Of a stretch of DNA of 64,000 nt, positions 10,327-61,012 are shown piece by piece. Each line of letters opens with the position of its first letter. Position 1 is the stretch's first letter. The stretch spans positions 1 through 64,000 of the IMG/VR virus record IMGVR_UViG_3300017742_004322, one strand, 5' to 3'. A program made the position numbers and the translations under genes. Source of the DNA: a virus. The notes beneath the pieces were generated by a model. The model saw only the letters and a list, made by a program, of their open reading frames with translations. It had not been told where the DNA came from and ran no database searches.

Positions 10327-10367
10327 TGTTTTGAATTTAGTTAATATTAATGAATTGTGAATATAAT

Positions 10368-10392
10368 AAAAAAAGGCGGCCAAGGCCACCTT
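10368..10392 (-). terminator. Terminator-like hairpin upstream of the receptor start codon
   Basis: AAGGTGGCC-TT-GGCCGCC followed by T7. Confidence 0.7.
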
Positions 10393-10513
10393 CAATTATT
10401 CTTTTTGAATAAAAAGTCAAATTATTATTTATATAAAAGTAAGTACTATTCATATTTTTTATAATTATCTTAACATACATATTATAAAACTTTTGTTAAT
10501 TAATTCTAATTTT

Positions 10514-35872: not shown

Positions 35873-37785
<1,913 letters not shown>

Positions 37786-39384: not shown

Positions 39385-40311
39385 TTAAAAACTAAAAATT
39401 AGATTTCGGTAGGGGTTCATATTTAATTCCCATTCTAAATCGTTATAAAACCCTTGTAATTTACTTTCTAAAATAGACTCAAATGCTCTATTTTTATCAG
39501 CATATTTATCCAGTAATGTAATAATTTTTTCTGGGAGATCAAAATCTAAAAATGCAAGTGCATCAATTTTGTATGGATTTTCTTTAAAATAAATCCATTT
39601 AACTTTATCACCTTGAGTAATTTTAGAATGTTGTTTATCTAACTTCCAAAATGTAAGTAAATCATTATATTTAATTGCTGCTTTTACAGGAGCAGGAGCA
39701 CCTTGGTTGATTGAAGAAAACATTTCTCCGGGACGAGGAGATGATGCTAAATATTTATCTAATGTTTTTACACGAGTAGGGTTACCTAATATAGTAATAT
39801 TAGTATCTATAAGGATTTTAGTCCTAAAGTTTTTTAGTAGGGTATCTATTTCGTTTTGGGGAGCTCCTTTAATAACTCTTTGCAACACATCTTTAAAAAA
39901 GTCTCCAAATATTTTAGGATAATTGGATTTCATAAATTCTAATCCTTTAATATCTAAATCATCTGTTGGTACACCTTCTTTTTTAGTAATCCATTGAGCA
40001 TACCTACGGGTAGCTCTAAAATACCCAGCACGAATCATACACTCTGTTTTCATCTCAAGTCTATGTTTAGGGACATTAAATGCTTCTAATGCTAACGTAT
40101 CGTAAGACTTAGTAATTAAATCCTGATATTTAAGAGCAATATCCTCTAACTTTTCATCTCTTTCTTCCTCTGACATATTATCAAAGTTGGGATAGAGTTT
40201 TCTAAGCATAGGTTCTGCATTGTAATAATTAGAATCTGTATCTACATAAACGCAGTAATTTTCATCTTCTTTATCACAGATAAACCAAGGTGTACTTTCT
40301 AATTGCTTCAT
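39385..40311 (-). CDS. Family B DNA polymerase, C-terminal subunit
   Basis: Motif C YVDTDS, RRYA and KGLE. Confidence 0.9.
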   Translation of the reverse strand: MKQLESTPWFICDKEDENYCVYVDTDSNYYNAEPMLRKLYPNFDNMSEEERDEKLEDIALKYQDLITKSYDTLALEAFNVPKHRLEMKTECMIRAGYFRATRRYAQWITKKEGVPTDDLDIKGLEFMKSNYPKIFGDFFKDVLQRVIKGAPQNEIDTLLKNFRTKILIDTNITILGNPTRVKTLDKYLASSPRPGEMFSSINQGAPAPVKAAIKYNDLLTFWKLDKQHSKITQGDKVKWIYFKENPYKIDALAFLDFDLPEKIITLLDKYADKNRAFESILESKLQGFYNDLEWELNMNPYRNLIFSF

Positions 40312-40679
40312 ACTTTAATCCACTTTTGTTCACTATTTAATTTAAATGAACCAATATGTTCTTTATTCCATTCATTTGGTGCTATTAAAGATAAGAAAGG
40401 ATTTCCATCCTTCCCAAGGTAAAGGTGATAAGTTTCACCTATTATAGGTTCATAACTAAATTTAGATTGATATACAAGTTCATTCCATTGATATTCTTTT
40501 AAAAGTTGTTTGAATTCTTCTTTTAATTCATCAAACTTAGTTTTAAATTGTTTGTTTACTTTATCAACTCCTCTAAGTTTCCAATCATCTATATTTTCAG
40601 GACGAATTACAGGAGCAGCAACACTATCCCCATAAGGAAGTAATGCTTTATTTTCTGCAAAATTGTCCGGTTTTTTCAT
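40308..40679 (-). CDS. DUF2452-like protein
   Basis: LLPYG..V.AP.I, F..EPIIG..YHLY and FLSLI.P.EW patterns. Confidence 0.7.
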   Translation of the reverse strand: MKKPDNFAENKALLPYGDSVAAPVIRPENIDDWKLRGVDKVNKQFKTKFDELKEEFKQLLKEYQWNELVYQSKFSYEPIIGETYHLYLGKDGNPFLSLIAPNEWNKEHIGSFKLNSEQKWIKV

Positions 40680-40891
40680 TCGCTTACTTGTATTTCACCT
40701 AAATTATGGGATGGTATAAAATAATTATATTCATATTTATTGAGCCATTCAAATACTATACCTTTCATTTTAGTAGAATTTCCAGTAATAATAGTATATT
40801 GTTTATGTCCTGGTTGTTCCCAGAAAAAATAACTAGTTAATTTTTCTTCTACCTCAGCATGTTTGACCCCATGTAAATCTAAAGTGCTCAT
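40676..40891 (-). CDS. Small Smr-domain protein
   Basis: LDLHG...IITG. Confidence 0.75.
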   Translation of the reverse strand: MSTLDLHGVKHAEVEEKLTSYFFWEQPGHKQYTIITGNSTKMKGIVFEWLNKYEYNYFIPSHNLGEIQVSE

Positions 40892-41136
40892 TCTTCATCA
40901 TTAGTAGATAAGGTGGTTTCAATTTCTCCTTTATTATTATAAATTAAGTCTGGAGTGGTGATATGAAAATTTTGTTTTTTTAAAGTAAATCTTCCACCTT
41001 GTTTTAGCATTTTTCTAAAAAACATTTCTTGGTTTTCATTCCAATTTTCACTTAATGCTATAATTTCTTCTTTAGATAGTAGTTCACCTTCACATTTAAT
41101 TACTACTCCCCTTCTTAGTGTTTGTTTTTTTATCAT
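40888..41136 (-). CDS. Hypothetical protein between the polymerase halves
   Basis: 82-aa ORF with ATGA overlaps on both sides. Confidence 0.65.
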   Translation of the reverse strand: MIKKQTLRRGVVIKCEGELLSKEEIIALSENWNENQEMFFRKMLKQGGRFTLKKQNFHITTPDLIYNNKGEIETTLSTNDEE

Positions 41137-42923
41137 AATTCTATTTCTCCTCTCATTACTTGGTTCATATGTTTGTTGGCAAAAGCCGCTGATTCTTGGA
41201 TAATACGTTGACCTGTAAGGGTAATACTTTCACTTAGGATTACATTACCATACCTAAATGAACCTAATGCTGTAGCACCGTAAAGTGAATTAAGAAGGAT
41301 CTTCATTGTATGTTGTTTTAAATGCATTAATTCTCCTAATTCCTTATTACCAGCTTTATAAGCTTCTTTCATTTTATTTTTAAATACAAGCCTTTCTTGA
41401 AACCATTTATTCAAAATAGTAGATAGTACTGAATCAAAATCAGTTCTATACATTACACCATTAGCTGAAATTGCTAGATTTTCACTTTCAATTAGCTCAA
41501 TTAAATCTTTAATTTTAATTTCAGTAGTTTGACGTTTAGCATTTTGAACCGAAACTGGTAGGTTTTGATCCATTTTTTTTAGATCATTTAAAGCATATCT
41601 ACAATTAAATATTTCTTTTCCTTCAACATTTATTTTTTCATCCGAAAATAGTATTTTTCCTACTAAAGTTTCTTTACCAATATTAAGAGACATAATAATT
41701 GATGGGTAGAGTGATGTTAAATCTTCATCAAACATATAATTAAAAATACCTGCTGTAGGACAAAATAAATATCCCCCAGCATAATTTTTCTTATTAATTG
41801 GGTTGGGGTCACGAGCAGGAGGAGCAATTCCTTGACTTAATAAATAAGCTGAGATAGCACCATCTTGGGTTTTAGTATTAGCATATACTTCACTGTAGTT
41901 ATGTTTACCTTTATGTGATAAGTTTTTAGTAAGAGCTAAATAGTCTAGTTTTTCATCTAATAATTTAAGAATTTCGACATCACGAAAATTATATTGAATA
42001 AATTTATGAATATCATCTTCAAACAATCGATCTAAATTACCATCATATTCAATCTTTGCTAACCCCGTATATTTTTCACCAATAACATCTAGTTTATATG
42101 AAGGTTCATCTCTAAAGCTAAACTTTTTATGTAAGCGCATATAATCTAAAGATTCTACACCTATAATATCTACATACATATCTTGTTTATACCATCTAGC
42201 TTTTACTTCACCTGTAACTTGATCTTTATATTTAGCAGATTTACGTGTTTTAACAATCCCAAGAGGAGATAAACTAGTAGCAATTTTTTTAGATAATACT
42301 CTTTCAATTCTGTAGTAAAGATAAGGAATATCGAAATAATCACTATTCCACCCAACTATAATATCAGGATTTAATTCTTTAAAACGTTTTACAAAAGTTT
42401 GTAATAATTCTACTTCAGTTTTAACAGGAATTATTTCTTTGTTTTTAGCTTTAGTATGATTTAATTGACCTTTTTTATCTAAAATAATGATTGCCCAGAG
42501 ATCTGTTTGTTTATCCCACCAAGCAATAGAAGTTATTGGTTTAGGAGCATCTTCAATATATTCTTCAGTAAGTGCACCTCCCATTTCACACTCTATATCA
42601 AAAAATATTTCCTTATGTCCTGTAGAGGGGTCATCATTAATTCCATATCTTTCAATAAGAAATTTTTGATAAGGGGGCATATCGTGAAAATGGAGACCTA
42701 AAGTATTTTTATATTTATATTCAGCATTCTTAGTAAAATACCAATTTGTAATAGGTTTTACAAATTCACCATTTAGACCTTTTAAAGTGTGTTCTTTTTT
42801 GGGGCAGTTAACATAAGCTGTGTTTTTATATTCTGCAACTTGATGTTTACCATCGCTTTCCCATAAATGCATTTCAAAATGGTTTGGGCCTAATTTTTCA
42901 CCTTGATAACATTTTTTATACAT
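41133..42923 (-). CDS. Family B DNA polymerase, N-terminal subunit (3'-5' exonuclease plus motifs A and B)
   Basis: FDIE, WN..YFDIPY, YN..D, DLTSLYPS and KILLNSLYG; lacks motif C. Confidence 0.93.
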   Translation of the reverse strand: MYKKCYQGEKLGPNHFEMHLWESDGKHQVAEYKNTAYVNCPKKEHTLKGLNGEFVKPITNWYFTKNAEYKYKNTLGLHFHDMPPYQKFLIERYGINDDPSTGHKEIFFDIECEMGGALTEEYIEDAPKPITSIAWWDKQTDLWAIIILDKKGQLNHTKAKNKEIIPVKTEVELLQTFVKRFKELNPDIIVGWNSDYFDIPYLYYRIERVLSKKIATSLSPLGIVKTRKSAKYKDQVTGEVKARWYKQDMYVDIIGVESLDYMRLHKKFSFRDEPSYKLDVIGEKYTGLAKIEYDGNLDRLFEDDIHKFIQYNFRDVEILKLLDEKLDYLALTKNLSHKGKHNYSEVYANTKTQDGAISAYLLSQGIAPPARDPNPINKKNYAGGYLFCPTAGIFNYMFDEDLTSLYPSIIMSLNIGKETLVGKILFSDEKINVEGKEIFNCRYALNDLKKMDQNLPVSVQNAKRQTTEIKIKDLIELIESENLAISANGVMYRTDFDSVLSTILNKWFQERLVFKNKMKEAYKAGNKELGELMHLKQHTMKILLNSLYGATALGSFRYGNVILSESITLTGQRIIQESAAFANKHMNQVMRGEIEL

Positions 42924-43537
42924 TAAAAGAATTGTTTTAGATCAGGTCTGAAATAATTAATATTCTTCATTACTTTTTTGTCACGACTTCTATAGACAAT
43001 ATAATAGTCTCCAACCTTTTCGTAGTGACATGGTTCATTTTGCTCTTTGGAACGAACTTTAACCGTTTCTTGTGCTTCTTCTTCACTTGAGCAAGCTTTA
43101 GACATATTCGACGCTTGTACTTCTTGATAGGCATCCCATAATTTATCCTTAAGACCATGAAGCATAGTTCCGTTACCAATCGAGACGTAGGCAATGTCAC
43201 ATAAAGCATCAAGTACCTCAACAATATCACCTGCTTCGCAGGCAGCTTTGTATTCTTCAAGTTCTTCGAGAATGAAGTCATAAACAAACATCCATTCAGC
43301 TTTGTTTTCAGGTATATTAGGCTCATAATTATTAGGTTTTCCCATTGTTGCATTAAATTCTTCTACTTCGCTTACAAAAGGAACGTACCTACCCTTAAAT
43401 TTATCAGCTATACGCTGTGCTGTTAACTCAGCCCATTCATGTTCTGGGGTCATTGATAATTGGTCTCGGTCTCTAAGTGAATTTAGCAAACCTAAACTAT
43501 TACGTAGTTCTAATTCTACTTCTTCTTTAAAATTCAT
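42923..43537 (-). CDS. MazG-like NTP pyrophosphohydrolase (DR2231/dUTPase-like)
   Basis: EELEE...EVLDALCD...EV..SNMSK. Confidence 0.85.
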   Translation of the reverse strand: MNFKEEVELELRNSLGLLNSLRDRDQLSMTPEHEWAELTAQRIADKFKGRYVPFVSEVEEFNATMGKPNNYEPNIPENKAEWMFVYDFILEELEEYKAACEAGDIVEVLDALCDIAYVSIGNGTMLHGLKDKLWDAYQEVQASNMSKACSSEEEAQETVKVRSKEQNEPCHYEKVGDYYIVYRSRDKKVMKNINYFRPDLKQFF

Positions 43538-43540
43538 AAA

Positions 43541-44236
43541 TTAAATGTTATGTCCTCCGTTATTAATTTTTAAACTATCAAAAAACTCTTTACGAGCATT
43601 ATTTTGATCATCTCTAAATGCTCCTGATGCTTTAGTGGTAACCATTGCTGCTCCTTGATGTTTTACTCCGCGACACGAAACACAATTATGAGTTCCGACA
43701 ATAGTAACAATTACACCTAAATTACCTTCTGTAATTTTAGATACAGCATTGTGTATTGCTGATGTTAATTGTTCTTGGATAGCACCTCTACGTCCAAATA
43801 ATTCTACAATTCTATTTAGTTTTGATAAACCAATTACTTGACCATCTTCTCCAGCAATATAACCAATATGAACAACTCCTCCAATTGTTTGGTGGTGGTG
43901 AGAACACATTGATGTTAGAGGAATATTTCTTTCAATAACTACTCCATCATAACCATCTGAGGGGAATGAAGTAATAGGAGACATTGCTGTATAACGACCT
44001 GACCATAAATCATTTACATATGCTTTAGATACTCGACGAGGAGTTTCCATTGAATTTGGATCATTTCTCCAATCACATTTTAAAGCATCTAAAAACTTAC
44101 CATAAGCTTCAGTAGCTTCATCTATCATTTCTTGTTTTTGATCTATATTAAGAGGGAAACCAGGAGCTACTCCATTAGCAAACCCTTCTTGTACCACTTC
44201 TAGTTCTTCGTGGATTTTTCTACGTTTGTTTTCCAT
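43541..44236 (-). CDS. folE: GTP cyclohydrolase I
   Basis: TP.RV, SMCSHH, GLSKL.R, QE.LT and H.C...RG motifs. Confidence 0.95.
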   Translation of the reverse strand: MENKRRKIHEELEVVQEGFANGVAPGFPLNIDQKQEMIDEATEAYGKFLDALKCDWRNDPNSMETPRRVSKAYVNDLWSGRYTAMSPITSFPSDGYDGVVIERNIPLTSMCSHHHQTIGGVVHIGYIAGEDGQVIGLSKLNRIVELFGRRGAIQEQLTSAIHNAVSKITEGNLGVIVTIVGTHNCVSCRGVKHQGAAMVTTKASGAFRDDQNNARKEFFDSLKINNGGHNI

Positions 44237-44255
44237 GTATTATAACTTATTTTAT

Positions 44256-44289
44256 GTGAATATACAAAACTAATTTTACAAAGCCCAAA
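44256..44289 (-). promoter_or_regulatory. Class 1 promoter variant upstream of folE-mazG-polB
   Basis: TTTGG-N16-TTTGTATATTCAC. Confidence 0.6.
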
Positions 44290-44779
44290 TTGAATTTAAA
44301 TTTCTCATATGACCTTTTTCATTATCCATTCCCATTCCAACTACCCATTCATCATCAATAGTAAATGCATGATATGATTTTTGTTTTGGGATTGGGGATG
44401 TTGCTCTAGTAACTAAAGACACAATTGAAATTGAAGCTGGTTTTTTGACTTCTAAATATTCAATAACTGCTTTCATAGTATTTCCAGTATCGTAAATATC
44501 ATCTACAATATAAACATGTTTTCCTTTAACACGTGTTTCTAAGTCCTTAGTGATTTGTATATCACCTTGTTTACGGTTTACATACGATTTAACGCGCATA
44601 AAATCACATTCCACGTCAATTGGCATAGATCGTACTAGATCGCTGTAGAACGCAAAAGCACCATTTAATAAACCAACCATTACAATTGGAGTTTTATCTC
44701 CTCTATGGTCATCAGTAATTTGTTTACCAATTATTTTTGTTTGAAATTGGATATCTTTAGCTGAAATTAGTTCTTTCAT
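44276..44779 (-). CDS. hpt: Hypoxanthine/guanine phosphoribosyltransferase
   Basis: LLNGA..F..DL, KSY, VDDIYDTGNT, VVG.G.D and RNL motifs. Confidence 0.9.
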   Translation of the reverse strand: MKELISAKDIQFQTKIIGKQITDDHRGDKTPIVMVGLLNGAFAFYSDLVRSMPIDVECDFMRVKSYVNRKQGDIQITKDLETRVKGKHVYIVDDIYDTGNTMKAVIEYLEVKKPASISIVSLVTRATSPIPKQKSYHAFTIDDEWVVGMGMDNEKGHMRNLNSIWAL

Positions 44780-45153
44780 CGTTTTCCTCCGTAATATTCT
44801 TTAGCATGACCTTCATTAATCAAAATTCGATTAACACTAATTTCTGGGGTGTTTGGGTTATTAGAGTGTAGAGTATTTTCAACATATATTTCCCCTAAAC
44901 AACGACCATATTTTCCTACTCCATGAGACACTAAAATAAATTTATTTTCGTTTTCTTCTAGAATTTCTATTAAACGAGCTTTAGCAGCTAATCCTTTTTT
45001 CTTTTCTTCTTTATTTCGAGTTCTGGATTCCCAAGCATCCATCCCCATCATTCGGATTCTTACTTTTTTTAAAGTATTAAATCCTAAATCAATTAGAGCA
45101 TCTATTGTGTCTCCGTCTACTACTCTATCTAATGTTGCGTGATAAGTATACAT
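44776..45153 (-). CDS. Thermonuclease (SNase-like)
   Basis: VVDGDT, R..G.D..E and KYGR.L motifs. Confidence 0.9.
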   Translation of the reverse strand: MYTYHATLDRVVDGDTIDALIDLGFNTLKKVRIRMMGMDAWESRTRNKEEKKKGLAAKARLIEILEENENKFILVSHGVGKYGRCLGEIYVENTLHSNNPNTPEISVNRILINEGHAKEYYGGKR

Positions 45154-45548
45154 TATTTGTTTTTGAATTTATAATAAATTTGTTTTTCCCATCCTAGCTT
45201 TTCAAATACCTTTTGAGAAGCTATATTATCGGTTTTTACATAAGCATCAACCTCAGCCCAACGAGGAGTATATTCTTGAATCATAAATGTTCCTATACCT
45301 TTACCATGGAATTTAGATGATACACAATAGGTTATTTCATGCCCTTTTAATAAACCTATATAACCTGCAGGTTCTCCATCTACTAAACAAATTTTATAAT
45401 CCCATTGATGTTCTGACATAAAGTCTTTTTGTTGTTCAGGAGTGATGTTAACTTGAGTAAAGAAACCTCCTTGATTATCGGGGTTAGTTCTTAATTGACG
45501 GACAAATTCCCAATATTGTTCTAGACAATTTACTAGTTCCATTTTCAT
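45153..45548 (-). CDS. GNAT N-acetyltransferase (PseH-like)
   Basis: FHGKGIGT and N.ASQKVFEKLG motifs. Confidence 0.85.
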   Translation of the reverse strand: MKMELVNCLEQYWEFVRQLRTNPDNQGGFFTQVNITPEQQKDFMSEHQWDYKICLVDGEPAGYIGLLKGHEITYCVSSKFHGKGIGTFMIQEYTPRWAEVDAYVKTDNIASQKVFEKLGWEKQIYYKFKNK

Positions 45549-46702
45549 CGTTTTATAGCTTTAATAACAGTTTTAACTACTTTTTTAGCATCTTCTTCTG
45601 TTAAAAACATATGAAGAGGGAGTGAAATTATTTCTTCACTTAGCTTATGAGCATTGGGACAAGTACCTTTTGCTTCTGAATATAAATCATATTGTGTATT
45701 GTCTTTGTAATGTACTCCAGGGAATATATCATTAGCGTTTAAATATTCCATTACTTCGTTTCTATTAGAAACTTTAATTTGATATAAATGACGAGAAGAT
45801 TCACATTTACTATTATGAAGAATAGGTTGAATTAATTTTTCATTTTTAAATCCTTCATCATATAATTTACAAATTTCTCTCCTACGACTATTATCTTCAT
45901 CTAAATAACGTAATGCTACTAATCCCATTGCAGCCATAATAGAGTTACCATGAGCTTTAAATCCTAAATCAATTACATCATAATCCCATTTATAACTGCC
46001 TTTAGAATTGGTACGATTAAAAGTATCTTTACTGATACCTAACCACGAAAGTTTACGAGCTAAAGCATCATAATCTTTATTTTGAAAACAAATCATACCT
46101 CCATCAGCAGTAGGCATATTTTTAACTGATTGGAAGCTAAAGATGGAAACATCAGCGTCCCATCCTACATGAGATTTAGAAACTGCCACTCCATGAAATA
46201 CTCTATCTACCTTAGTTCCTGCCATATGAGCAGCATCTAAAATAAGTTTTAAACCATGTTTATCACATAATTTTTTAACTTCATTATATTGTCCAATATT
46301 ACCTCCAATACCAACAAACATTACTGCTTTGGTTTTACGTGTAATTTTAGATTCAATACTTTTAACGTCTAAACAAAGTTGATCATCGACATCAGCAAAT
46401 ATTGGTTTTAAATCATTATATAAAATAGCGTGATTTGAAGAAACAAAAGTAAGAGGGGTAGTAATTACTTCATCTCCATCTTTCCATTTATTAACATCTT
46501 TAAGGACTTTAAGAGCAATTTGAAGCCCAACTGTATTAGAAGCTATAAAATGTGCATGGTTAAAATTAGTATATTTTTTCCATTCTTCTTCTAATTTTTC
46601 AGTCTTAAAACCCATTCCTGTCCATCCAATTTCTAGACATTCTGTAATTTCTTTTAAGATTTCTTCTGTACGATACTTTGGTTTAAAAACTTGAATTGAC
46701 AT
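45545..46702 (-). CDS. DegT/DnrJ/EryC1/StrS PLP-dependent aminotransferase
   Basis: DAAH, FSFQSVKNMPT.DGG, HY and SLPLH motifs; start probably MSIQVF. Confidence 0.93.
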   Translation of the reverse strand: MSIQVFKPKYRTEEILKEITECLEIGWTGMGFKTEKLEEEWKKYTNFNHAHFIASNTVGLQIALKVLKDVNKWKDGDEVITTPLTFVSSNHAILYNDLKPIFADVDDQLCLDVKSIESKITRKTKAVMFVGIGGNIGQYNEVKKLCDKHGLKLILDAAHMAGTKVDRVFHGVAVSKSHVGWDADVSIFSFQSVKNMPTADGGMICFQNKDYDALARKLSWLGISKDTFNRTNSKGSYKWDYDVIDLGFKAHGNSIMAAMGLVALRYLDEDNSRRREICKLYDEGFKNEKLIQPILHNSKCESSRHLYQIKVSNRNEVMEYLNANDIFPGVHYKDNTQYDLYSEAKGTCPNAHKLSEEIISLPLHMFLTEEDAKKVVKTVIKAIKR

Positions 46703-46727
46703 TTTTTTTTTATTTAAACAATTTTTA

Positions 46728-47564
46728 TTATACTCCTCTTTTAGTGTCAAACGCTATAATATGATCTCTACCAGTCATGTTATATCCTTTTTCGGCACAC
46801 ATTTCAAATACTAAAGGATACATTTCAACTAAAGTTTCTCGAGTATCACCCGCAGGCATTATAAATGTTTTATCTTTAGGAACATTAATTTCTAGTCTAT
46901 AAGCTTCAATTTCAGCAAGACCTTCATCTGTACCATCCCAAACAGGTTTAAAGTGGTAATCATTATGATAACTAAGAGTTTTCTTAATTGCTTCAGTATT
47001 AAGACGAAGACGATTATGAGTTTTAACCATTTTTTCATTTGTAACTGACCCATTAGGGGTAGCAGCTCCAACAACAGGAACACTATTACTAAATTTTGGA
47101 GAAAGAGAAATAAGACCTAGTGGATAATCTGTTTCGAGAAAATGAGAACCTTCAGTTTCAATTGTAATTAAGATACCTCTTTCATTTGCAAAATGTGTTA
47201 TTTCATTTACTAAAGCAGGGTGCATAGTAGGACTACCACCTGTTAACATCATTTCTTTAACATGAGGATTTTCATCATAAATTTTAATAATGTCGTTAAA
47301 TGTAAAGGTACCTTTTTCAGGGTGGACTGAAGTATACCAAGAATCGCACCACCCACCTTCACCAAAATAACATCGATGAGTACAGCCAGTAGTACGAACA
47401 GCAATAGTAGGTCTTCCAAATCTAGACCCTTCAGATTGGACACACCTATAGATCTCAAGAATAGGTAATACTTTGTCATAATCTTTAATACGACCTAAAG
47501 GGGCCGTTTTATTCCATAATTTAGGATTCAACATAGTAGGCTGCATTTTTACCATGTTCAGCAA
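46728..47564 (-). CDS. queE: 7-carboxy-7-deazaguanine synthase (radical SAM)
   Basis: Q.EG...G.P...VR..GC...C......WCD, TGG.P, IET.G and SPK motifs. Confidence 0.92.
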   Translation of the reverse strand: MLNMVKMQPTMLNPKLWNKTAPLGRIKDYDKVLPILEIYRCVQSEGSRFGRPTIAVRTTGCTHRCYFGEGGWCDSWYTSVHPEKGTFTFNDIIKIYDENPHVKEMMLTGGSPTMHPALVNEITHFANERGILITIETEGSHFLETDYPLGLISLSPKFSNSVPVVGAATPNGSVTNEKMVKTHNRLRLNTEAIKKTLSYHNDYHFKPVWDGTDEGLAEIEAYRLEINVPKDKTFIMPAGDTRETLVEMYPLVFEMCAEKGYNMTGRDHIIAFDTKRGV

Positions 47565-47988
47565 ATTTAACTTTAGTAACTTTTACTCTACCTTCAGTTT
47601 CTTCGAGAACAAAATTATTAATTTTATTAAAAATATACTCAGCAAATTTTTCGGCTCCTGTAGCTTCAACAACTCTTAATTGAATTATACCTTCCTTATC
47701 TAGTCTTTCCCATTCTGGTAGGGCAGGATCGTCTTCAGCACAAACTAAAGTATGGTCAAACATATAATCCATCCATGCTTTAGGGGACATACCATCAATT
47801 TGAGTTTTAGCACGTTTCATACCACCAAAATCCCAAACCCAATTTCTATGATCTAAATCACCTTCAAAATAAACTTTAAACGAAACTCCATAACCATGAA
47901 GAAATCGACAATGAGTTGTATTTGCCTTCCACTGACGGAACACAGTTGAGAATCCATCAAATACTTTACTTGACTGAAATTTACCCAT
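47521..47988 (-). CDS. queD: 6-carboxytetrahydropterin synthase
   Basis: C..LHG, W.WDFG, FDH and AE motifs. Confidence 0.88.
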   Translation of the reverse strand: MGKFQSSKVFDGFSTVFRQWKANTTHCRFLHGYGVSFKVYFEGDLDHRNWVWDFGGMKRAKTQIDGMSPKAWMDYMFDHTLVCAEDDPALPEWERLDKEGIIQLRVVEATGAEKFAEYIFNKINNFVLEETEGRVKVTKVKFAEHGKNAAYYVES

Positions 47989-48229
47989 TATAGAATTGTT
48001 TTACAAAGTTAATATCTTTTACACCTACAAACATATCTATTTTATTCCCACTATCATCTACTTTAATAACCGAAGGGACACTTCTAATTCCATATTGAGC
48101 TGTGATTTCGTTTTCAACATCAATATTAATTTTTTGAATGTTCATACCTTCAGATGATAATCGATCCATCAAGGGTCCAAACATTTTACACGGTCCACAC
48201 CAAGGTGCAGAAAAATATAATAATTTCAT
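47981..48229 (-). CDS. trxA: Thioredoxin
   Basis: WCGPC and cis-Pro SVP. Confidence 0.92.
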   Translation of the reverse strand: MKLLYFSAPWCGPCKMFGPLMDRLSSEGMNIQKINIDVENEITAQYGIRSVPSVIKVDDSGNKIDMFVGVKDINFVKQFYNG

Positions 48230-48454
48230 ATCTTTATAATTTAAACTAATTCTTCTATAATTCCTATTATTTCACTAAATATAAGAACCCCTACTGCAAG
48301 TGGCAAATTTACAATCAAAAGTCCATATCCTAAAATACGAAATCCTGATTTAATAAATGAAATTATTTGATGTTTACGAGCATCAGGTAATTCTTGTTTT
48401 TTAGGTTCAGGTATATGAACTCTACCAAACCCTTTTGCGTCCATTATTTCTCTA

Positions 48455-49342
48455 TCACTCATGTTCTGCTAAGATTTTGGATACGTGCTCTTTAACTTTT
48501 TCCCAAGAAGCCAATCCTTCATCATCTTCATATTGTATTGGATCAGGCCTCCCAAGATTAATAAAGGCCTCAACACGCTCCACACTACTTGCAGACTTAT
48601 AATCGCTATTACCACTAGGATAAGGCTTATAGCTTGTATTAGTTCTTTTATAAACTTCATCAAAGTCAATATTTAATTTTTGACAGAGACTTTCTCCATC
48701 TTGTAAAATTGTAAACTTATCTCCTTCAAGATAAGGCGTCCAATAATCTACTAATTCACTATCCCAATTACCTAATCTAAAAGCAGCATCATCTGCATCT
48801 CTAAATTCTTGACGACAGTCAGGATAAATTGCATGGTCACCTGCATGGATTCCTAAAGCAATATTAGTAATTTCTTTTTTAGTAGTTGCTATTGATAAAG
48901 CAACTGCCTGAGTTATTGAAGCAAATATTTTGTTTCTATTAGGAACAACAGTTGCTTTCATATTATCTTCAGCATAATGCCCTTCAGGCACTTCATCTCC
49001 ACCTTCAACTAAGGCTGAGTTGAGTAAATCAACTAAGCCATCAAGTTTAATAACTCGATAATTAATAGGGGAATATTTACCAAAATCATCTCCCCTATGA
49101 TTAGTTTCATAAAAGTTATCATTTAAATAATCTACTAGTGATTGAGCTCTTTCTAACTCTACTCTATGTTTTTGACCATAGTCAAAAGATAAAGCTGTTA
49201 CTGTTTCATACTCATCTAAAGCTTTAAGCAATAGTGTTGAGCTGTCCATACCACCTGAAAGTGATACTACTACGTGTTTTCCTTGTTCAAAAATCATTTT
49301 TAATTGCATTTTATAAGCCAGGTATTTTAAGCGTATAGGCAA
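48455..49342 (-). CDS. queC: 7-cyano-7-deazaguanine synthase
   Basis: SGGMDS, FDYGQKH, VVPNRN and YPDCR motifs. The distal CxxCxxC is replaced by SDYKSASS. Confidence 0.92.
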   Translation of the reverse strand: MPIRLKYLAYKMQLKMIFEQGKHVVVSLSGGMDSSTLLLKALDEYETVTALSFDYGQKHRVELERAQSLVDYLNDNFYETNHRGDDFGKYSPINYRVIKLDGLVDLLNSALVEGGDEVPEGHYAEDNMKATVVPNRNKIFASITQAVALSIATTKKEITNIALGIHAGDHAIYPDCRQEFRDADDAAFRLGNWDSELVDYWTPYLEGDKFTILQDGESLCQKLNIDFDEVYKRTNTSYKPYPSGNSDYKSASSVERVEAFINLGRPDPIQYEDDEGLASWEKVKEHVSKILAEHE

Positions 49343-49743
49343 ACGCTGTATTCTTTTATTTAACTTAGTCTTCTACAAATTCTACATCTCCGTAATCATC
49401 AATTGGTTTATCTCTTACTAGATCCCAATCGGCATCATCTATGATTTCTTGTTGAATATCTTCATCACCTGTTTTCCACTGTGCTAATTCTTCTTCTGTT
49501 AGCACATATTCTTCCCATCTGAAGTCTGAGTAATTTACTGTTCTTGTTAATTTTGCCATTTTACATTAATTTTGGTATTCTAAATTTTAAAATAGGACTT
49601 CCATTTACTGTAGGTTGTCCTAAATCATCTATTTCTACTGTTTTGACTTTAATAGGCTTATTTCTAAACCTTCCAGTTAACATAATATCTCCCTTTTCTA
49701 TAGGAATAATTAATTTCCCATTTTTATATTCAGTTTTCATAAT

Positions 49744-50532
49744 TTATAAATCATTAATTTCACCAAATTTAGAAACATTATGTATTAAACAATCATAATC
49801 TACCTCATTGCTCAACATAAAAAAATAATCATTTATATTTGCTTTTGGTTTTTTATCTAAACCAGAATTAGTATACCTAATACCTTCTAAAGCAGCCATT
49901 ACAGGATTTGAAGTATCAATTGATTCAATACAATCAAATCCTTTATACCAACCAAATTCTTGTGGTACAGCACACCCTAATAAATGAATCCTATCATTTT
50001 GAGAGATAACTTTAGTTTTGTATAAAGCTGAAATTACTGAAAGGCGTCCTAAAGCTTTACCGATATCTTTATTTGGATGAGGGACTACATCGTTATAATA
50101 AGAAGCACCATATGAAAATGCTATTTTCCTGTATCCTAAATCTTTATATGTTTGATAACAAGTTGCAGCTTCATGAATAGTTTGTGCTTGAACTACTGCT
50201 ACTTTAGTAGTATTTTCAGGAAGTATAGTTTGAGACCATTTACGAGCATTTACTACAGAAGCATCTCGTTGTTCCCATACATCAGGAACAATAAACTCAT
50301 CTGGTTTTAATTCATTAACCCAGTGTAATAAACGATCAGTATTGTATGCTTTACCTAATTCATGGAGTGAATTATCCATAATAATATATCTTTCTTGAGC
50401 TTTTGCATCAAGGAAATATTCTAGATAACCTTCTTCTTGATCTAGTAAGTGAGGAAGACAATAATCATAATCATTAAAGTGACGACTATCTTCTAATAAA
50501 CACAAGGGGGTTTCATGGCTAACCTTTATCAT
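49744..50532 (-). CDS. TGT-fold transglycosylase (DpdA-like candidate)
   Basis: IMDNS, PD, VVQ, IHLLG and SIDTS match the TGT/DpdA catalytic layout; lies at the head of the que cluster. Confidence 0.7.
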   Translation of the reverse strand: MIKVSHETPLCLLEDSRHFNDYDYCLPHLLDQEEGYLEYFLDAKAQERYIIMDNSLHELGKAYNTDRLLHWVNELKPDEFIVPDVWEQRDASVVNARKWSQTILPENTTKVAVVQAQTIHEAATCYQTYKDLGYRKIAFSYGASYYNDVVPHPNKDIGKALGRLSVISALYKTKVISQNDRIHLLGCAVPQEFGWYKGFDCIESIDTSNPVMAALEGIRYTNSGLDKKPKANINDYFFMLSNEVDYDCLIHNVSKFGEINDL

Positions 50533-50551
50533 TGTAACTTTTTACTTTATA

Positions 50552-50584
50552 ATAAATATAATTAAAAGCAGGTGTTACTCCAAG
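50552..50584 (-). promoter_or_regulatory. Class 1 promoter heading the deazaguanine cluster
   Basis: CTTG-N20-TATATTTA. Confidence 0.6.
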
Positions 50585-50668
50585 TCCACCTAAAATAACT
50601 GTAAAAATATTTGGGTGCCAATGCTCTCCACAAAAGCCTAATGCATGTTTTAAAAATTCAATCATAAT

Positions 50669-51463
50669 TTAATTACTTAATGGTGCTTTAATTGTGGGTT
50701 GATATTTGTAGCCTTTAATCTCATAATCCCATTCTCCATTTAAGATATCTACATTAGATAACTTAATAGTAGGTAAATCAAACCCATCTCTACTAATTTG
50801 TTCTTTTGCTTGTTCAATATGATTTAAATATAAGTGGGTATCACCTAAATTCCCAATTAAATTTCCTGGTTTGTAACCAGTTTCTTCACATAATAACATT
50901 AACAATAATCCATAACTGGCAATGTTAAAAGGTAAACCTAAAAATGTATCTACTGAACGTTGGTTCCACATTAAAGATAGTTCATCATCAGCTACATAAC
51001 ACTGAAATCCATAATGACAAGGGGGTAAGGTCATTTGATTTAATTCATCTACATTCCATGCTGATACCATTAATCTTCTGCTGTTTGGATTAGATTTAAG
51101 TTCAGTAATTAGATTAGCTATTTGATCATTACCACTCCAATTTCTCCATTGTTTACCATAAATAGGACCTAATTCACCATCTGTTCTACCAGATTTTTTA
51201 TAATCACCATCCCATATCTTACAATTATTATCTTGAAGATATTTTATGTTAGTATCTCCCTTTAAAAACCACTTTAACTCAGTCACCATTGTTTTGACTG
51301 CCATTTTTTTAGTAGTAAGTAATGGAAAACCATCTGACATTTTATGTCTAATTTGCATTCCAAATTTAGATAGAGTTCCAGTGCCTGTTCTATCACCTTT
51401 TTCTTTACCATTATGCAGGAGTTCAGCTAAAATGCCTCTATACTGTTCATCTAATTTATTCAT
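50669..51463 (-). CDS. thyA: Thymidylate synthase
   Basis: DRTGTGT, LPPCH and QRSVD.FLGLPFN motifs. Confidence 0.97.
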   Translation of the reverse strand: MNKLDEQYRGILAELLHNGKEKGDRTGTGTLSKFGMQIRHKMSDGFPLLTTKKMAVKTMVTELKWFLKGDTNIKYLQDNNCKIWDGDYKKSGRTDGELGPIYGKQWRNWSGNDQIANLITELKSNPNSRRLMVSAWNVDELNQMTLPPCHYGFQCYVADDELSLMWNQRSVDTFLGLPFNIASYGLLLMLLCEETGYKPGNLIGNLGDTHLYLNHIEQAKEQISRDGFDLPTIKLSNVDILNGEWDYEIKGYKYQPTIKAPLSN

Positions 51464-51467
51464 ATTA

Positions 51468-51998
51468 TTATTTCACTTTTTTAGGTCTTCCTCGTTTTGA
51501 TTTTTTAACTGAGTATGGGGTTTCGTATTTAAATTCCATACAATATTTGTAATAAGATAATAACTCTCCAGGCCAATTGCAAAGTTCTTCTTCAAGCTCT
51601 AAACGGGTTATGTTGAATGTTGTTGTAAATGCATCATATAATGCCTCTAAACGAGTGGTTTCTTCTTTCCAATAATCCTCCATTAGACGTTTATAGCGAG
51701 CAAGATCAACAGCTAATATCTCTAATTGGTCTGAATGATTGTGTTTATTAAGGTTAACTTTGTCCTTAGCATTATGTAATGATAGTTGGGCTTGCATAAA
51801 ATATGATGATTCATTAAAATCACCATTAACAATACGCTCTTTTAAAGTCGCGCGTTTACCCAATGGCTTAATTCCATCCGTATGACTGCGCCACCACATA
51901 AAGCGATTGTAATTTAGCGGTTGATATCGCGCTAAATTCTTATAGACTACATCGAGTGGTTGGGTTAAAGCTTCTTCTCTAATAAATCTAAAAGGCAT
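51468..51998 (-). CDS. Hypothetical phage protein
   Basis: 176-aa ORF with an AT-hook-like KRGRPKK tail. Confidence 0.65.
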   Translation of the reverse strand: MPFRFIREEALTQPLDVVYKNLARYQPLNYNRFMWWRSHTDGIKPLGKRATLKERIVNGDFNESSYFMQAQLSLHNAKDKVNLNKHNHSDQLEILAVDLARYKRLMEDYWKEETTRLEALYDAFTTTFNITRLELEEELCNWPGELLSYYKYCMEFKYETPYSVKKSKRGRPKKVK

Positions 51999-56325: not shown

Positions 56326-56762
56326 TACCTATAAACTTTAAATTCAGCTGATCTATCTTTATAAGCATCATAATCTGTCATAAATTCTTCTAATCGAGGT
56401 TCAATATCATCTGATTTAATAATCCAAAATTGAGCTCCAGCGGCTTTTGCTTTTTCAATTTCTTGATTGTCATCTGATGATGATATAATTCCTATTACAC
56501 ATCCATTACCATACTCAAAATTAATTTTACGAATTAACTCAATTCCATCAAAAGATGAACCAAGTATATTTAAATCAACAAATACACATTCGGGGCGTTC
56601 TTCATTAGGGTCATCGGGCCACCATTCTTTAAATTTAAGATTAGCTTCATCTGAAGAATTAAGGGCTTCTAGAGATAAAGTTATATCTAAGATGCTACAG
56701 GCATCTTCAAATACCAAGTGGAATAGATCCTCATCGTCTATAAGTAATATAGAATTTATCAT
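56325..56762 (-). CDS. Stand-alone response regulator (receiver domain)
   Basis: ILLIDDE, phospho-acceptor FVDLN, DGIEL, ISSS and AGA..WIIK motifs; no output domain. Confidence 0.92.
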   Translation of the reverse strand: MINSILLIDDEDLFHLVFEDACSILDITLSLEALNSSDEANLKFKEWWPDDPNEERPECVFVDLNILGSSFDGIELIRKINFEYGNGCVIGIISSSDDNQEIEKAKAAGAQFWIIKSDDIEPRLEEFMTDYDAYKDRSAEFKVYR

Positions 56763-57997
56763 GTTGTTTTAATTTTTATTTTTAATATAGTTCCTGTTTT
56801 TGTTTTTTCAGAGGTTATAGCAAAACCATGTTCTTTTAATATTGCGATACATATATTTAATCCTAACCCTGATCCTCCTTCTTTTTGCCCTGCTTTTCTA
56901 GTATATGGTTTTGATAATTGAAGGAATTCTTCATTAGTCATTCCTCTTCCATTATCTTCTATACATAAAGTAGAATCATTACCCATATAAATAGATACTA
57001 ATTTAGTAGAACTATCATTATATTTTAACCCATTTCTAATTAAATTGTCTATTGCTGTACAAAATAAAGGTTCATTTACATTTACTACAGGTAAACTTTT
57101 AATTTTAACTTGCTTAATATAAGATGTAGCAGATAAATAATTATTTAGTATAACTGCTAAATTATGATCTTCCATATCTAATTGAGCATCTTCTTTTACT
57201 AAGTTAGTAAATTCTTTAACTCCAGCATAAACTCTTTGTGTATGTTTTAAACCTTCTTCTAACATTTTTAAAGGAGCTTCTATTTTTAATTCTTTAATTT
57301 TTTCAGCAGAAACTCTTCTTTTTAAAGAAGTTAACCCCCTAGGCATATATGTGTTAATTCCACTATGCATATCGTGTCTTAAAATTTTAGCAGCATGTTC
57401 TAAATAAGAATTTTTCTGGTTGACTTCAATTTCAGCATTGTGTTGTATAGTTGTATCTGTTGCTATTTTTAAAACTTTATTATACCCACCCTTAGGATCT
57501 TTTATTGGAGTATAATTACCAAATAACCAACGAGAAGTACCATCCCTAGCAATTCTTTCAAATTCACCACTAATAGTTTCACCTCTTTGTAGTCTTTTCC
57601 AAAATTCATGATAGTCTAAACTATTGCTATACTCTTTAGGAACCATATATCTATGGTTTTTGTTTTTTAATTCTTTTTCTGTATAACCCATAGTAGTACA
57701 AAAGTTGCTATTATGAGATAAAATTTTCCCTTCCATATTAAGTACTACTACTATATTTGATTTATCAATTGCATTTAATTGTAAATCAATATTTGCTTCT
57801 TTTAATTTAGAAGTACGATTAAAATCCCAAATAATATAAGAAAAGAAAGGAATTAGGGCAATTATACATCCATACCCAAATTCAGCTAAAAAATAACTAA
57901 ACTCAAATACTCTAAATACAAGAAAAGTTTCTAATATAAAGAATATAAGTATAATTCCAACTGATATGCCTAAACATATTTTTGTAGCTTTATTCAT
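56759..57997 (-). CDS. Membrane PAS/PAC sensor histidine kinase
   Basis: Two N-terminal TMs; PAS/PAC (N..F...GY..EL, FW..L..G, RDG..RW, PI.D, D.T); H-box RHD; N-box NLIRNGLKY; G1 DNGRG; G2 GSGLGL. Confidence 0.93.
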   Translation of the reverse strand: MNKATKICLGISVGIILIFFILETFLVFRVFEFSYFLAEFGYGCIIALIPFFSYIIWDFNRTSKLKEANIDLQLNAIDKSNIVVVLNMEGKILSHNSNFCTTMGYTEKELKNKNHRYMVPKEYSNSLDYHEFWKRLQRGETISGEFERIARDGTSRWLFGNYTPIKDPKGGYNKVLKIATDTTIQHNAEIEVNQKNSYLEHAAKILRHDMHSGINTYMPRGLTSLKRRVSAEKIKELKIEAPLKMLEEGLKHTQRVYAGVKEFTNLVKEDAQLDMEDHNLAVILNNYLSATSYIKQVKIKSLPVVNVNEPLFCTAIDNLIRNGLKYNDSSTKLVSIYMGNDSTLCIEDNGRGMTNEEFLQLSKPYTRKAGQKEGGSGLGLNICIAILKEHGFAITSEKTKTGTILKIKIKTT

Positions 57998-58309: not shown

Positions 58310-60022
58310 CTACCCATCACAGCTTAAACAATCTTCTGTAGTACGAGAACCTAAATCACCTTTAATAACTGAATCTGTACGAAGATAATATAGAGTTTTA
58401 ACACCTAATTTCCAAGCTTCCATATGGACTTGGTTAATCCATTTGGGGGAATCTGTTGGGTCAAACGCTAAATTTAATGATTGTGTTTGATCAATGTATT
58501 TTTGACGAGTTGCTGCTTGTTGAACTAGAGAAAATTGGTTGATTTCTGGGAATGTCATGAAGATTTCCTTTTCATCTTCGGTAAGGATATCATTAGATAA
58601 ACCCATTACAGAACCATTATCACCCATAATTTGATCCCAAACACGAGTTGTATTATGTTTTTTTTCCTTTAGTAATTTTTCTAATTCAGGGTTTTTAACT
58701 ATAAAAGTTCCTTTAGCACCATTAAATACATAAATGTTTGCAGGTTGAGGTTCAATACCTGCTGAACAACTGTTGATTCGAGAATTAGATACTGTAGGGG
58801 CAATAGCTAATAAATGAGTATTTCTCATACCTGTACCTCTACACCAAACAGGTTCTCCATATTCTAAGGCCATTTGACGGGAAGCAGCCTCAGCTTTAGT
58901 TTTAATATCACTAAAAATAGTATGAGTCCAAGCTGTGGCTCCAATTGAGTTAAAAGGTAAATTCTTTTGTTGTAAAAAAGTATGCCACCCCATTACTCCT
59001 AAACCTAATGCTCTACCTTTTTTAGCACTTCTATGGGTACGAACCATAGAATCTTTACCATTAGTTTTTTGGATGAATTCTTCCATTACACCATCTAAGA
59101 AGTAAGTAGCAACTTCAACTACATCTGTGTTTTTCCATTCATCATATTTAGCTAAATTAAGAGAAGATAAACAACAAATAAAGCTATGTTCCTCATCTGT
59201 ATGGAGTGTAATCTCAGTACAAATATTAGTCATAGAAACATCTAAATTATTCATGCGGTATGCTAAAGGATTATCTTTATTAACATTATCCTTAAACATT
59301 ATGTATGGTTCACCCGTTTCTACACGTGATTTAAGTATTTCTAACCACAACGACATAGCCTCGCTGTCTCGATCCTGTAAGCGCTTCATAAACGCATCAT
59401 CCACCATTACAGCTTGATGTAAGTTTAAACATTGTCTGTTAGGATCACCTTTAGGTCTGCGAATCTGTAAGAATTCTTTAATATCTTTATGATTAATATC
59501 TAAATTTACAGAAGAAGCTCCACGTCTTACTGAACCTTGATTAGTTGCAATAATAGTTGAATCATAAATTTTAGCCCAAGGGACAATTCCTTCTGAGACT
59601 CCATTTCCTGTTATACCTTCTCCTCTTCCTCTAATTCTACTAAGGGATATTCCCACGCCTCCCCCATAGGAAGTAAGTCGCATAAGTTCTGCGTTAGTGA
59701 GACCAATACCACGTATCGAATCCGGAGTATCAACACCAAAACAACTAATAGGCAAACCCCGATCAGTACCGGTATTGCTGAGAACAGGGCTAGCGAGACC
59801 AATCCATCCATTCCAAATATATTTAAAAAATTTACTAGCTAAATCAGGGCGATTTAATCTTTCTGCTACTGCATTAGCTACGCGCCTATACGCTTTACGA
59901 GGAGTTTCCCCAGGCATTAAATACCCTTTTGATATTGTAGATAAAGCTACATCATCAAAAAATTCAGGGTAGTCTTTACCTCTTTCCCATTGGGAGTAAT
60001 CGGCTATTATATTGTTATCCAT
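58310..60022 (-). CDS. nrdA: Ribonucleotide reductase class I alpha subunit (no ATP cone)
   Basis: ISCF, TNICTE, APT.S, KTLYY and C-terminal CLSC motifs. Confidence 0.96.
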   Translation of the reverse strand: MDNNIIADYSQWERGKDYPEFFDDVALSTISKGYLMPGETPRKAYRRVANAVAERLNRPDLASKFFKYIWNGWIGLASPVLSNTGTDRGLPISCFGVDTPDSIRGIGLTNAELMRLTSYGGGVGISLSRIRGRGEGITGNGVSEGIVPWAKIYDSTIIATNQGSVRRGASSVNLDINHKDIKEFLQIRRPKGDPNRQCLNLHQAVMVDDAFMKRLQDRDSEAMSLWLEILKSRVETGEPYIMFKDNVNKDNPLAYRMNNLDVSMTNICTEITLHTDEEHSFICCLSSLNLAKYDEWKNTDVVEVATYFLDGVMEEFIQKTNGKDSMVRTHRSAKKGRALGLGVMGWHTFLQQKNLPFNSIGATAWTHTIFSDIKTKAEAASRQMALEYGEPVWCRGTGMRNTHLLAIAPTVSNSRINSCSAGIEPQPANIYVFNGAKGTFIVKNPELEKLLKEKKHNTTRVWDQIMGDNGSVMGLSNDILTEDEKEIFMTFPEINQFSLVQQAATRQKYIDQTQSLNLAFDPTDSPKWINQVHMEAWKLGVKTLYYLRTDSVIKGDLGSRTTEDCLSCDG

Positions 60023-60028
60023 AATTAA

Positions 60029-61012
60029 TTAAAATATACTTTCATCCCACTCCATGTGGCCTTTTGAGTAATTAGTTACTCGGTTTGCAAAAAAGTCAGT
60101 ATGTTGTTTACCTCCAGAAAGAGCACCAAACCAACTCATTCTTTCTACGGCTGTTAAATCAACACCTTCAATAATAGGATCATATCCTAAATCACCTAAT
60201 TTTACATTAACTCTATTTTTAATAAAGTTTATTAAATCTTGTTTTGGACAACCCTCTAAATCACCTAATTCATAAACCTTATTTATAAAATCTAATTCAA
60301 GTTGTAAAGATAATAAAGCTGCTTCATTTATAGCTGCTTGTAGTTCTGGGGTTTTGATTTCTGGGTTTTCATTAATAAGTGTTCTGAATAACCAGCATCC
60401 GGCTTCTGAGTGAAGGGATTCGTCTCTAATAGACCATTCAACAATTTGACCCACTCCTTTAAGCTTATTTCGCATCTTAAAAGATAAGAGTATGGCAAAG
60501 GAAGAGAATAAGTTAACTCCTTCGGTAAATGCGGAGAATACAGCGAGTGATTTAGCAATTTCGTGGAGATCTTTTTTACCATTAAAACTATCCCTAACAG
60601 TAGTAAGATTTTCAATTTTAGCCATCGTAGCCTCATCTTCCAAAAATTCATCGAAGTTTTCAAGTCCAAGTGTTTCATTTAATAGTGAATATGCTTCAGC
60701 ATGTATTGTTTCAAACGCACCGAAGGTTGTAGCCATCATTATAACCTCTGGTTTTCTAAACCATTTAGTTACTAATCCTGACCAATAATCATTTACAACT
60801 GTTTCTGTTTGAGCAAAACCCTTAAGGATAGATCCTATAATGTTTTTTTCTGTTTCATTTAAATTTGAGCTCCAATCTGTAATATCACTCATCATGGGAA
60901 CTTCTGTATGTAACCAGTGGGCTTGTTGTTGTTTTAACCAATAATCGGCTGCTTCTTGATATTCAAAAGGTTTGTAAACGATGCGTTCTTGCAAAAGATC
61001 TTTTTTTGCCAT
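60029..61012 (-). CDS. nrdB: Ribonucleotide reductase class I beta subunit (class Id-like)
   Basis: FAQTE, ETIHAEAY, EG and DESLH motifs. Confidence 0.95.
   Translation of the reverse strand: MAKKDLLQERIVYKPFEYQEAADYWLKQQQAHWLHTEVPMMSDITDWSSNLNETEKNIIGSILKGFAQTETVVNDYWSGLVTKWFRKPEVIMMATTFGAFETIHAEAYSLLNETLGLENFDEFLEDEATMAKIENLTTVRDSFNGKKDLHEIAKSLAVFSAFTEGVNLFSSFAILLSFKMRNKLKGVGQIVEWSIRDESLHSEAGCWLFRTLINENPEIKTPELQAAINEAALLSLQLELDFINKVYELGDLEGCPKQDLINFIKNRVNVKLGDLGYDPIIEGVDLTAVERMSWFGALSGGKQHTDFFANRVTNYSKGHMEWDESIF

Follow-up and report, generated by a model that had tools for sequence, protein, structure and literature searches.

Complete replacement of guanine by 7-deazaguanines has been reported for phages encoding a guanine transglycosylase of the DpdA3 family, with fdPreQ1 being found in Flavobacterium phage immuto, dADG in Campylobacter phage CP220 and dDG in Cellulophaga phage phiST (PMC10516641), and post-replicative insertion of the base into DNA has been assigned to this family by its authors (PMC10516641). 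In the two latter phages, the transglycosylase is accompanied by FolE, QueD and QueE (PMC10516641). Here, a related locus from a virus is described, residing in a stretch of 64,000 bases (the window) that comprises bases 1 to 64000 of the 74,938-base IMG/VR virus record IMGVR_UViG_3300017742_004322, rated about 51% complete. Read from its genes alone, the locus probably serves the modification of DNA with a 7-deazaguanine by a DpdA3-type system, in a marine phage that is abundant but uncultured. An earlier note on this DNA had already proposed a deazaguanine DNA-modification cluster headed by a DpdA protein and joined to the polymerase genes, and this part of its interpretation stands, whereas its suggestions of an unusual tailoring of the base and of a phosphoribosyltransferase (PRTase)-driven route find no support.

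Among the characterized phages, immuto comes closest, as it holds the nearest sequences for all pathway enzymes and shares with the window the local gene order QueE – PRTase – FolE – MazG-like as well as a zinc-less QueC. In contrast to immuto, however, the window encodes neither QueF nor DpdN, its DpdA3 (38% identity) falls into a separate clade, its PRTase is of the hypoxanthine-guanine (HGPRT) type and not of the small type seen in immuto and phiST, and a PolB split into two parts, instead of PolA, adjoins the cluster. The DpdA3 homologues of CP220 (34% identity) and phiST (20%) likewise occur with FolE, QueD and QueE, and phiST resembles the window also in a MazG-like gene beside FolE and in polymerase genes nearby. 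CP220 differs in employing QueC* and in having no detectable PRTase, while phiST differs by the presence of DpdL and the lack of QueC. In both of these phages, a P-loop kinase gene is situated beside DpdA3, where the window has none. The end product predicted here, dPreQ0 made by way of FolE, QueD, QueE and QueC without QueF, is also that of the DpdA1 phages CAjan (Escherichia) and iggy (Pseudomonas), but these rely on another DpdA subfamily and replace only 16–32% of G, in some cases at a sequence motif (PMC10516641, PMC10484667).

The DpdA3-type transglycosylase

Comparison with the founding members of the family, i.e., phiST CGPG_00065, the CP220 homologue and immuto gp206, by tblastn revealed 38% identity to the "DNA guanine transglycosylase" of immuto (E 4e-52), 34% to the CP220 group (E 9e-38) and 20% to phiST (E 6e-4), and by this homology the gene is assigned to the published DpdA3 family. 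Against Pfam, only a sub-threshold match to DUF6610 was obtained. An AlphaFold2 model, calculated with an alignment of 29 relatives, reached a predicted local distance difference test (pLDDT) value of 94.6 and a predicted template modeling score (pTM) of 0.91, and was matched by Foldseek at a probability of 1.0 to bacterial, archaeal and human tRNA-guanine transglycosylases (TGTs) as well as to the bacterial DNA preQ0 insertase DpdA (7UI4). The TGT fold and the relationship to DpdA claimed in the earlier note are thus borne out, with homology placing the product in the DpdA3 subfamily and with no match to the canonical TGT family (PF01702). Invariant in the 29 relatives are D53, N54, D84, Q115, HLLG183-186 and D206-T-S-x-P210. 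D84 and D206 of the D-T-S-x-P motif, which may correspond to the catalytic aspartates of the TGT superfamily, sit at strand ends, where the profile match to 7UI4, the single entry retrieved among the PDB sequences, is weak (E 0.41). A CxCxxC zinc motif is missing from the protein, as is the entire zinc subdomain of the TGTs, leaving a minimal barrel.

Searching 1.84 billion representative sequences with the DpdA3 profile resulted in 4050 relatives at E ≤ 0.001 and in 412 (50%-identity clusters) at E ≤ 1e-30. In a tree, the window protein belongs to a 63-row sister clade, apart from the pair of CP220 and immuto and from phiST. The median isoelectric point (pI) of the family, 5.4, is uninformative as a test for DNA binding. 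In metagenomes, natural fusions of DpdA3 with a C-terminal formyltransferase (PF00551, DpdN-like) occur (P0328 and P0345, 447 aa), and other long forms carry attached GIY-YIG/NUMOD homing-endonuclease modules; none of these partners discriminates between DNA and a nucleotide as substrate.

Predicted pathway to preQ0 and proposed mechanism

As in the characterized DpdA3 phages, the transglycosylase is co-encoded with FolE, QueD and QueE, which are 62, 68 and 65% identical to the respective enzymes of immuto, and the QueC proteins share 70% identity. The window QueC possesses the PP-loop motif SGGMDS and scores 127 in TIGR00364, below the cut-off of 150. In the QueC of this phage family and in that of immuto, each of the four cysteines that bind zinc at the C-terminus is replaced, whereas they are kept in Rosebush QueC and in CP220 QueC*. 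The two zinc-less copies (immuto QueC, L119 1498-2379) also have an extra insert after residue ~70. An amidotransferase domain is not present in the window QueC. Neither the 74.9-kb record nor four larger relatives, one of them a record of 170 kb with a completeness rating of 100%, gave any match to QueF (PF14489), the ArcS core (PF17884) or canonical TGT (PF01702). Likewise, homologues of immuto QueF, immuto DpdN and phiST DpdL are encoded in none of 80 related loci, i.e., IMG/VR viral contigs encoding a DpdA3 with 42–98% identity, onto which the window proteins were mapped. The absence of QueF, Gat-QueC and ArcS stated earlier hence holds. As immuto QueC feeds QueF, it must supply preQ0 in that phage, and because the window QueC is immuto-like and QueF, DpdN, DpdL and ArcS were not found, preQ0 is the predicted DNA base. 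By this reading of the gene set, the pathway should end at preQ0, resulting in dPreQ0 in DNA, while the zinc-less QueC makes the amide dADG a conceivable, though less likely, end product. Elsewhere in the window, a flavodoxin (2441-2962) and a NUDIX hydrolase (1470-1898) are encoded; flavodoxins are the type of physiological reductant employed by radical SAM enzymes such as QueE.

Across the 80 loci, a shared core is discernible with the order conserved 176-aa protein – DpdA3 – QueC – (73-aa open reading frame, ORF) – thioredoxin – QueD – QueE – slot – PRTase – FolE – MazG-like – PolB. In 47 of them, the thioredoxin gene is kept in its place after QueC and before QueD, the PRTase gene is located 4–71 bp upstream of FolE (29 of 30 loci), and MazG-like and PolB genes are separated by only 3–40 bp (15 of 19). 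The slot between QueE and PRTase, by contrast, spans from 164 to 6971 bp, and its cargo differs by relative, with short ORFs of unknown function, a nuclease, ThyA (L013) or several kb of unknown genes. DNA nearly identical to that of the window is present in marine, seawater and viral metagenomes of many studies, with 14 DNA runs sharing at least 0.92 of the sampled words. Identical cluster pieces are also found on contigs from metatranscriptome libraries (X15, X16), which as contigs cannot prove transcription.

The following mechanism is proposed. FolE, QueD, QueE and QueC, as assigned by homology, would convert GTP to preQ0 along the established pathway, and DpdA3 would exchange guanine in the phage DNA for preQ0 after replication, probably to near-completeness as in the three measured DpdA3 phages. 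With no QueF, DpdN, DpdL or ArcS found, dPreQ0 would be the resulting DNA base. The HGPRT-type enzyme encoded beside FolE most likely converts the expelled guanine, and also purines from degraded host DNA, to GMP and further to GTP, a loop that would be closed by one guanine going out and one GTP going in. The MazG-like protein most likely acts on behalf of ThyA and the neighboring PolB, as a pyrophosphatase for dUTP or for house-cleaning, and the staphylococcal-nuclease-type endonuclease (SNase) could be an optional scavenger. The DegT-type aminotransferase and the GNAT acetyltransferase in the slot would produce an N-acetylated amino-deoxy-sugar as part of the large glycan gene island of the phage.

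The MazG-like protein is 78% identical to the NTP pyrophosphohydrolase of immuto and retains the metal motif EExxE...ExxD, with E91, E92, E95 and D110 being invariant and E107 nearly so. By sequence, it has no match in the PDB. A trimeric dUTPase (PF00692) was not found in the record, in the complete relative, in another large relative or in immuto and phiST, whereas ThyA is present in the window. Its structural neighbors suggest that the MazG-like protein most likely resembles DR2231 in function, as a pyrophosphatase for dUTP or for house-cleaning, and the caveat of the earlier note that it may be a dUTPase serving ThyA has turned out to be the better-supported view.

Several points weigh against parts of this mechanism. 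Attempts to demonstrate DpdA3 activity in E. coli failed (PMC10516641). At just 38% identity, neither the substrate of immuto DpdA3 nor its extent of replacement is safely transferable to the window homologue. The product predicted for the zinc-less QueC variant is not certain, and the assignment of a guanine-recycling role to the HGPRT-type enzyme draws on gene position and sequence only. Moreover, the model of the MazG-like protein is of moderate confidence (pLDDT 70), and its nearest structures and only consistent neighbors, those of Deinococcus DR2231 with dUMP or dUMPNPP, were retrieved by Foldseek at a probability of ~1 with weak E values of 0.05–0.2.

Alternative routes

Although rather unlikely, the best-surviving alternative is a DpdA3 acting on free nucleotides, where guanine would be exchanged for preQ0 on dGMP or dGTP prior to replication, kinases would provide the modified dNTP, the pyrophosphatase would deplete dGTP, the modified nucleotide would enter the DNA through the adjoining PolB, and HGPRT would still recycle the guanine. 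Such a route could explain the complete replacement in every measured DpdA3 phage as well as the failure of DpdA3 in a test of DNA insertion in E. coli, in which DpdA1 and DpdA2 had succeeded (PMC10516641), and the ADG nucleoside reported from CP220-infected cells (PMC10516641) would fit, too. The minimal 262-aa barrel without zinc subdomain and the translational junction of the cluster with PolB (TAATG) also speak for it. Furthermore, P-loop small-molecule kinases are encoded within 1–2 genes of DpdA3 in CP220 (gp055 with HD and AAA_33 domains, gp057 with AAA_28; L002 10862-11893 and 12813-13355), immuto (gp203, AAA_28; L001 13481-14005) and phiST (CGPG_00066, AAA_18; L084 7484-7963), the latter being given merely as a protein of unknown function (PMC10516641). 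The window cluster, however, contains no kinase gene. In the complete relative G001, the AAA_28 kinase is about 67 kb distant from the cluster, and in the 74.9-kb record it was not found. In addition, the MazG-like enzyme resembles a dUTPase and not a dGTPase, the authors of the family assign post-replicative insertion to DpdA3, and no TGT-family enzyme is known to use mononucleotides as substrates. If true, however, a nucleotide-level DpdA3, with the HGPRT, the pyrophosphatase and the coupled PolB as its dedicated supply line, would contradict the published account, in which insertion of every phage 7-deazaguanine follows replication.

Clearly less probable still, and in our view very unlikely, is the route considered in the earlier note, in which the PRTase would join preQ0 to phosphoribosyl pyrophosphate (PRPP), ribonucleotide reductase (RNR) and kinases would make the dNTP, MazG would remove dGTP and the nuclease would eliminate unmodified DNA. 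PRTases joining preQ0 to PRPP are known from the synthesis of toyocamycin (ToyH) and tubercidin (TubE), and in Z-genome (2-aminoadenine) phages (PurZ/MazZ/DatZ) the modified dNTP is made prior to replication by a dedicated synthetase. Like these phages, the window has a MazG-type pyrophosphatase and nucleotide enzymes beside a polymerase, but unlike them it encodes a transglycosylase, and its MazG-like enzyme resembles a dUTPase. In favor of the PRTase route are the PRTase gene itself, which follows QueE and precedes FolE in 29 of 30 relatives, the different, non-orthologous PRTase type at the same position in immuto and the RNR genes in the window (58310-61012). On the other hand, the sequence of the window PRTase suggests a common enzyme for guanine and hypoxanthine. 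It falls just short of the TIGR01203 cut-off of 150 bits and matches 56 HGPRT sequences of the PDB at E ≤ 1e-5, with Hpt being the best (1e-29). Its PRPP motif VDDIYDTGNT retains the catalytic Asp in 29 of 29 orthologues, a residue which in HGPRT contacts the purine N7, an atom missing from 7-deazaguanines. Aligned with the lysine that binds O6 in Hpt is Arg in the window clade and Lys in a distant clade, and the purine-stacking Phe is replaced by Trp. More than 1000 phage orthologues were among the matches listed in the PRTase homologue search, and these pointed to no cellular donor. The small PRTases of immuto and phiST belong to a different type and are 30% identical to each other. In L050, the slot is devoid of a PRTase and QueE borders directly on FolE, and just 18 of the 80 loci have the SNase. 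Since CP220 replaces 100% of G (PMC10516641) and its whole genome has no match to the PRTase family PF00156, a PRTase appears to be frequent but dispensable for DpdA3-type replacement. The invariably present DpdA3, moreover, would be redundant under a PRTase-driven route. Within the post-replicative DpdA3 mechanism, in contrast, the fixed place before FolE fits recycling, as every exchange releases a guanine while every new preQ0 uses up a GTP, and the HGPRT-type enzyme most likely salvages the expelled guanine.

Hardly credible is, finally, the idea that aminotransferase and GNAT tailor the deazaguanine, or the modified DNA itself, to yield a new hypermodified base. It is true that both genes are inserted into the Que cluster in the window and in two other genomes, and this arrangement is real. 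The PRTase/SNase/GNAT/DegT/QueE junctions are bridged with 0–1 mismatches by contigs from two other studies (X6 record 27; X11 records 3-5), and because these contigs are independent, the gene order is not an assembly artefact or chimera. Among the 80 DpdA3 loci, however, the pair occupies the slot only in L012, which is in a DpdA3 subclade different from that of the window, and the closest relatives by DpdA3 (L004, L005 and L006; 90–95% identity) have the cluster without it. In a separate search with the aminotransferase, 15 viral loci were found, with GNAT accompanying DegT at every locus having it. In eight of these, the orthologous pair (56–88% identity; 65–88% for DegT) resides among glycosyltransferase genes, and in five of the eight it lies between an orthologue of the window PD-(D/E)XK nuclease gene (24988-25932) and GT1 genes (23332-24759, 22073-23332), a site which in the window holds a 62-aa ORF only. 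Location in the Que slot is restricted to three genomes (window, L116 and L107/L012), and in L107/L012 a sulfotransferase-like sugar gene is found alongside the pair. DegT-family enzymes, besides, act on keto-sugar nucleotides, and no intermediate of the deazaguanine pathway bears such a group. Because of the glycosyltransferase context in eight relatives, DegT and GNAT are regarded as a moved sugar cassette and are, judged by synteny, displaced sugar-pathway cargo outside the deazaguanine pathway, and the unusual tailoring suggested previously is not supported. A sugar aminotransferase paired with a GNAT acetyltransferase is well known from WecE/WecD and PseC/PseH, and likewise the DegT-family gene of the window is directly followed by GNAT. 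The best NCBIfam matches of the aminotransferase are of PseC, ArnB and WecE types, but it scores far below each equivalog cut-off (PseC, 219.8 versus 423.5), so that the exact sugar is not assignable from the scores. Its homologues, named dTDP-4-amino-4,6-dideoxygalactose transaminase in their sources, have 385 aa, and the start is therefore probably at 46702. The glycan gene set of the window (~10500-33900), out of which the pair is taken to have moved in this genome, comprises an RmlC-like epimerase, a PfkB kinase, three GT2 and two GT1 glycosyltransferases, a sulfotransferase, three FkbM methyltransferases and two nucleotidyltransferase-HAD fusions.

Similarly far-fetched is a role in modifying tRNA, as left open in the earlier note, or in merely boosting queuosine synthesis of the host: the TGT fold of DpdA3 and the frequent occurrence of Que genes in phages would agree with it, but the base is in the DNA in all three characterized DpdA3 phages, which makes a tRNA role unlikely, and the window protein lacks the TGT zinc subdomain and any PF01702 match and is encoded together with replication genes.

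Gene neighborhood and implications

The genes of the region, in a window of about 30% G+C, are all located on the minus strand. Those named in the earlier note for positions 42923-50532 are real ORFs at the coordinates given there, to which the thioredoxin gene and three small ORFs have to be added. In transcription order, the conserved 176-aa protein is followed by ThyA, DpdA3, two small ORFs, QueC, a 73-aa ORF, thioredoxin, QueD, QueE, DegT, GNAT, SNase, PRTase, FolE, MazG-like and the N-terminal part of PolB. Stop and start codons of the two last genes share one base (TAATG), confirming that the cluster is joined to the split PolB genes.

Features of the DpdA3 cluster and adjoining genes (positions refer to the window)
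Product	Position	Strand	Evidence
PolB C-terminal part	39385-40311	-	weak divDNApol match
PolB N-terminal part (exonuclease and part of polymerase domain)	41133-42923	-	PF00136, PF03104
Putative MazG/PRA-PH-like all-alpha NTP pyrophosphohydrolase, conserved C-terminal domain	42923-43537	-	PF01503 E 5e-9
FolE, GTP cyclohydrolase I	43541-44236	-	PF01227 E 1e-41
HGPRT-type purine phosphoribosyltransferase	44276-44779	-	TIGR01203 147.6 bits
Staphylococcal-nuclease-type endonuclease (SNase)	44776-45153	-	PF00565 E 2e-9, phrog_452 E 3e-33
GNAT N-acetyltransferase	45153-45548	-	PF13302, PF00583
DegT/PseC/WecE-type sugar aminotransferase	45545-46750	-	PF01041 E 6e-81
QueE-like radical SAM, 7-carboxy-7-deazaguanine synthase type	46728-47564	-	TIGR03365 E 2e-14, weak Radical_SAM match
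QueD/PTPS, 6-carboxytetrahydropterin synthase type	47521-47988	-	PF01242 E 1e-13
Thioredoxin	47981-48229	-	PF00085 E 1e-13
QueC, 7-cyano-7-deazaguanine synthase type, zinc site absent	48455-49342	-	PF06508 E 2e-37
DpdA3-family guanine transglycosylase, 262 aa	49744-50532	-	tblastn, phrog_19058 E 1e-41, AlphaFold2, Foldseek
Thymidylate synthase ThyA	50669-51463	-	PF00303 E 3e-95
Conserved basic protein, 176 aa, pI 9.2	51468-51998	-	synteny, 63/80 loci

The conserved basic protein, ending in RGRPKKVK, is the usual upstream neighbor of DpdA3. Pfam, NCBIfam, PHROG and Atlas gave no match for this protein, which may serve as a regulator or as a partner that binds DNA. The gap between ThyA and DpdA3 is filled by a 48-aa hydrophobic ORF (50519-50665) overlapping the DpdA3 start. 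ThyA itself is mobile in the region, as it sits in the slot between QueE and PRTase in L013. The SNase is a variable neighbor of the cluster, placed either in this slot or upstream of DpdA3. The two PolB ORFs (39385-42923) are separated by three small genes, one Smr-like and one with DUF2452, and this split recurs in relatives. Scanning for sigma-70 promoters gave a signal equal to that of shuffled controls, and the single terminator-like site on the coding strand is positioned inside the MazG-like gene. A megablast search of the cluster against phage records gave no match. Unusual cargo elsewhere in the window includes a TonB-dependent receptor (7762-10395), a GroEL-type chaperonin (35873-37498) and a PAS histidine kinase (56759-57997).

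The gene set is of the already described DpdA3 type, and DegT and GNAT do not represent new chemistry on the base. As this standout feature of the locus is unrelated cargo, the main use of the analysis is a corrected annotation. Beyond this, a large and environmentally abundant clade is added to the DpdA3 family, no member of which has been characterized, and the predicted combination of DpdA3 with a pathway stopping at preQ0 has not yet been reported. If DpdA3 acts here as it does elsewhere, dPreQ0 would replace all G in the DNA of this phage. The tight pairing of HGPRT and FolE genes suggests a guanine-recycling loop, which would help to explain how complete replacement can be sustained.

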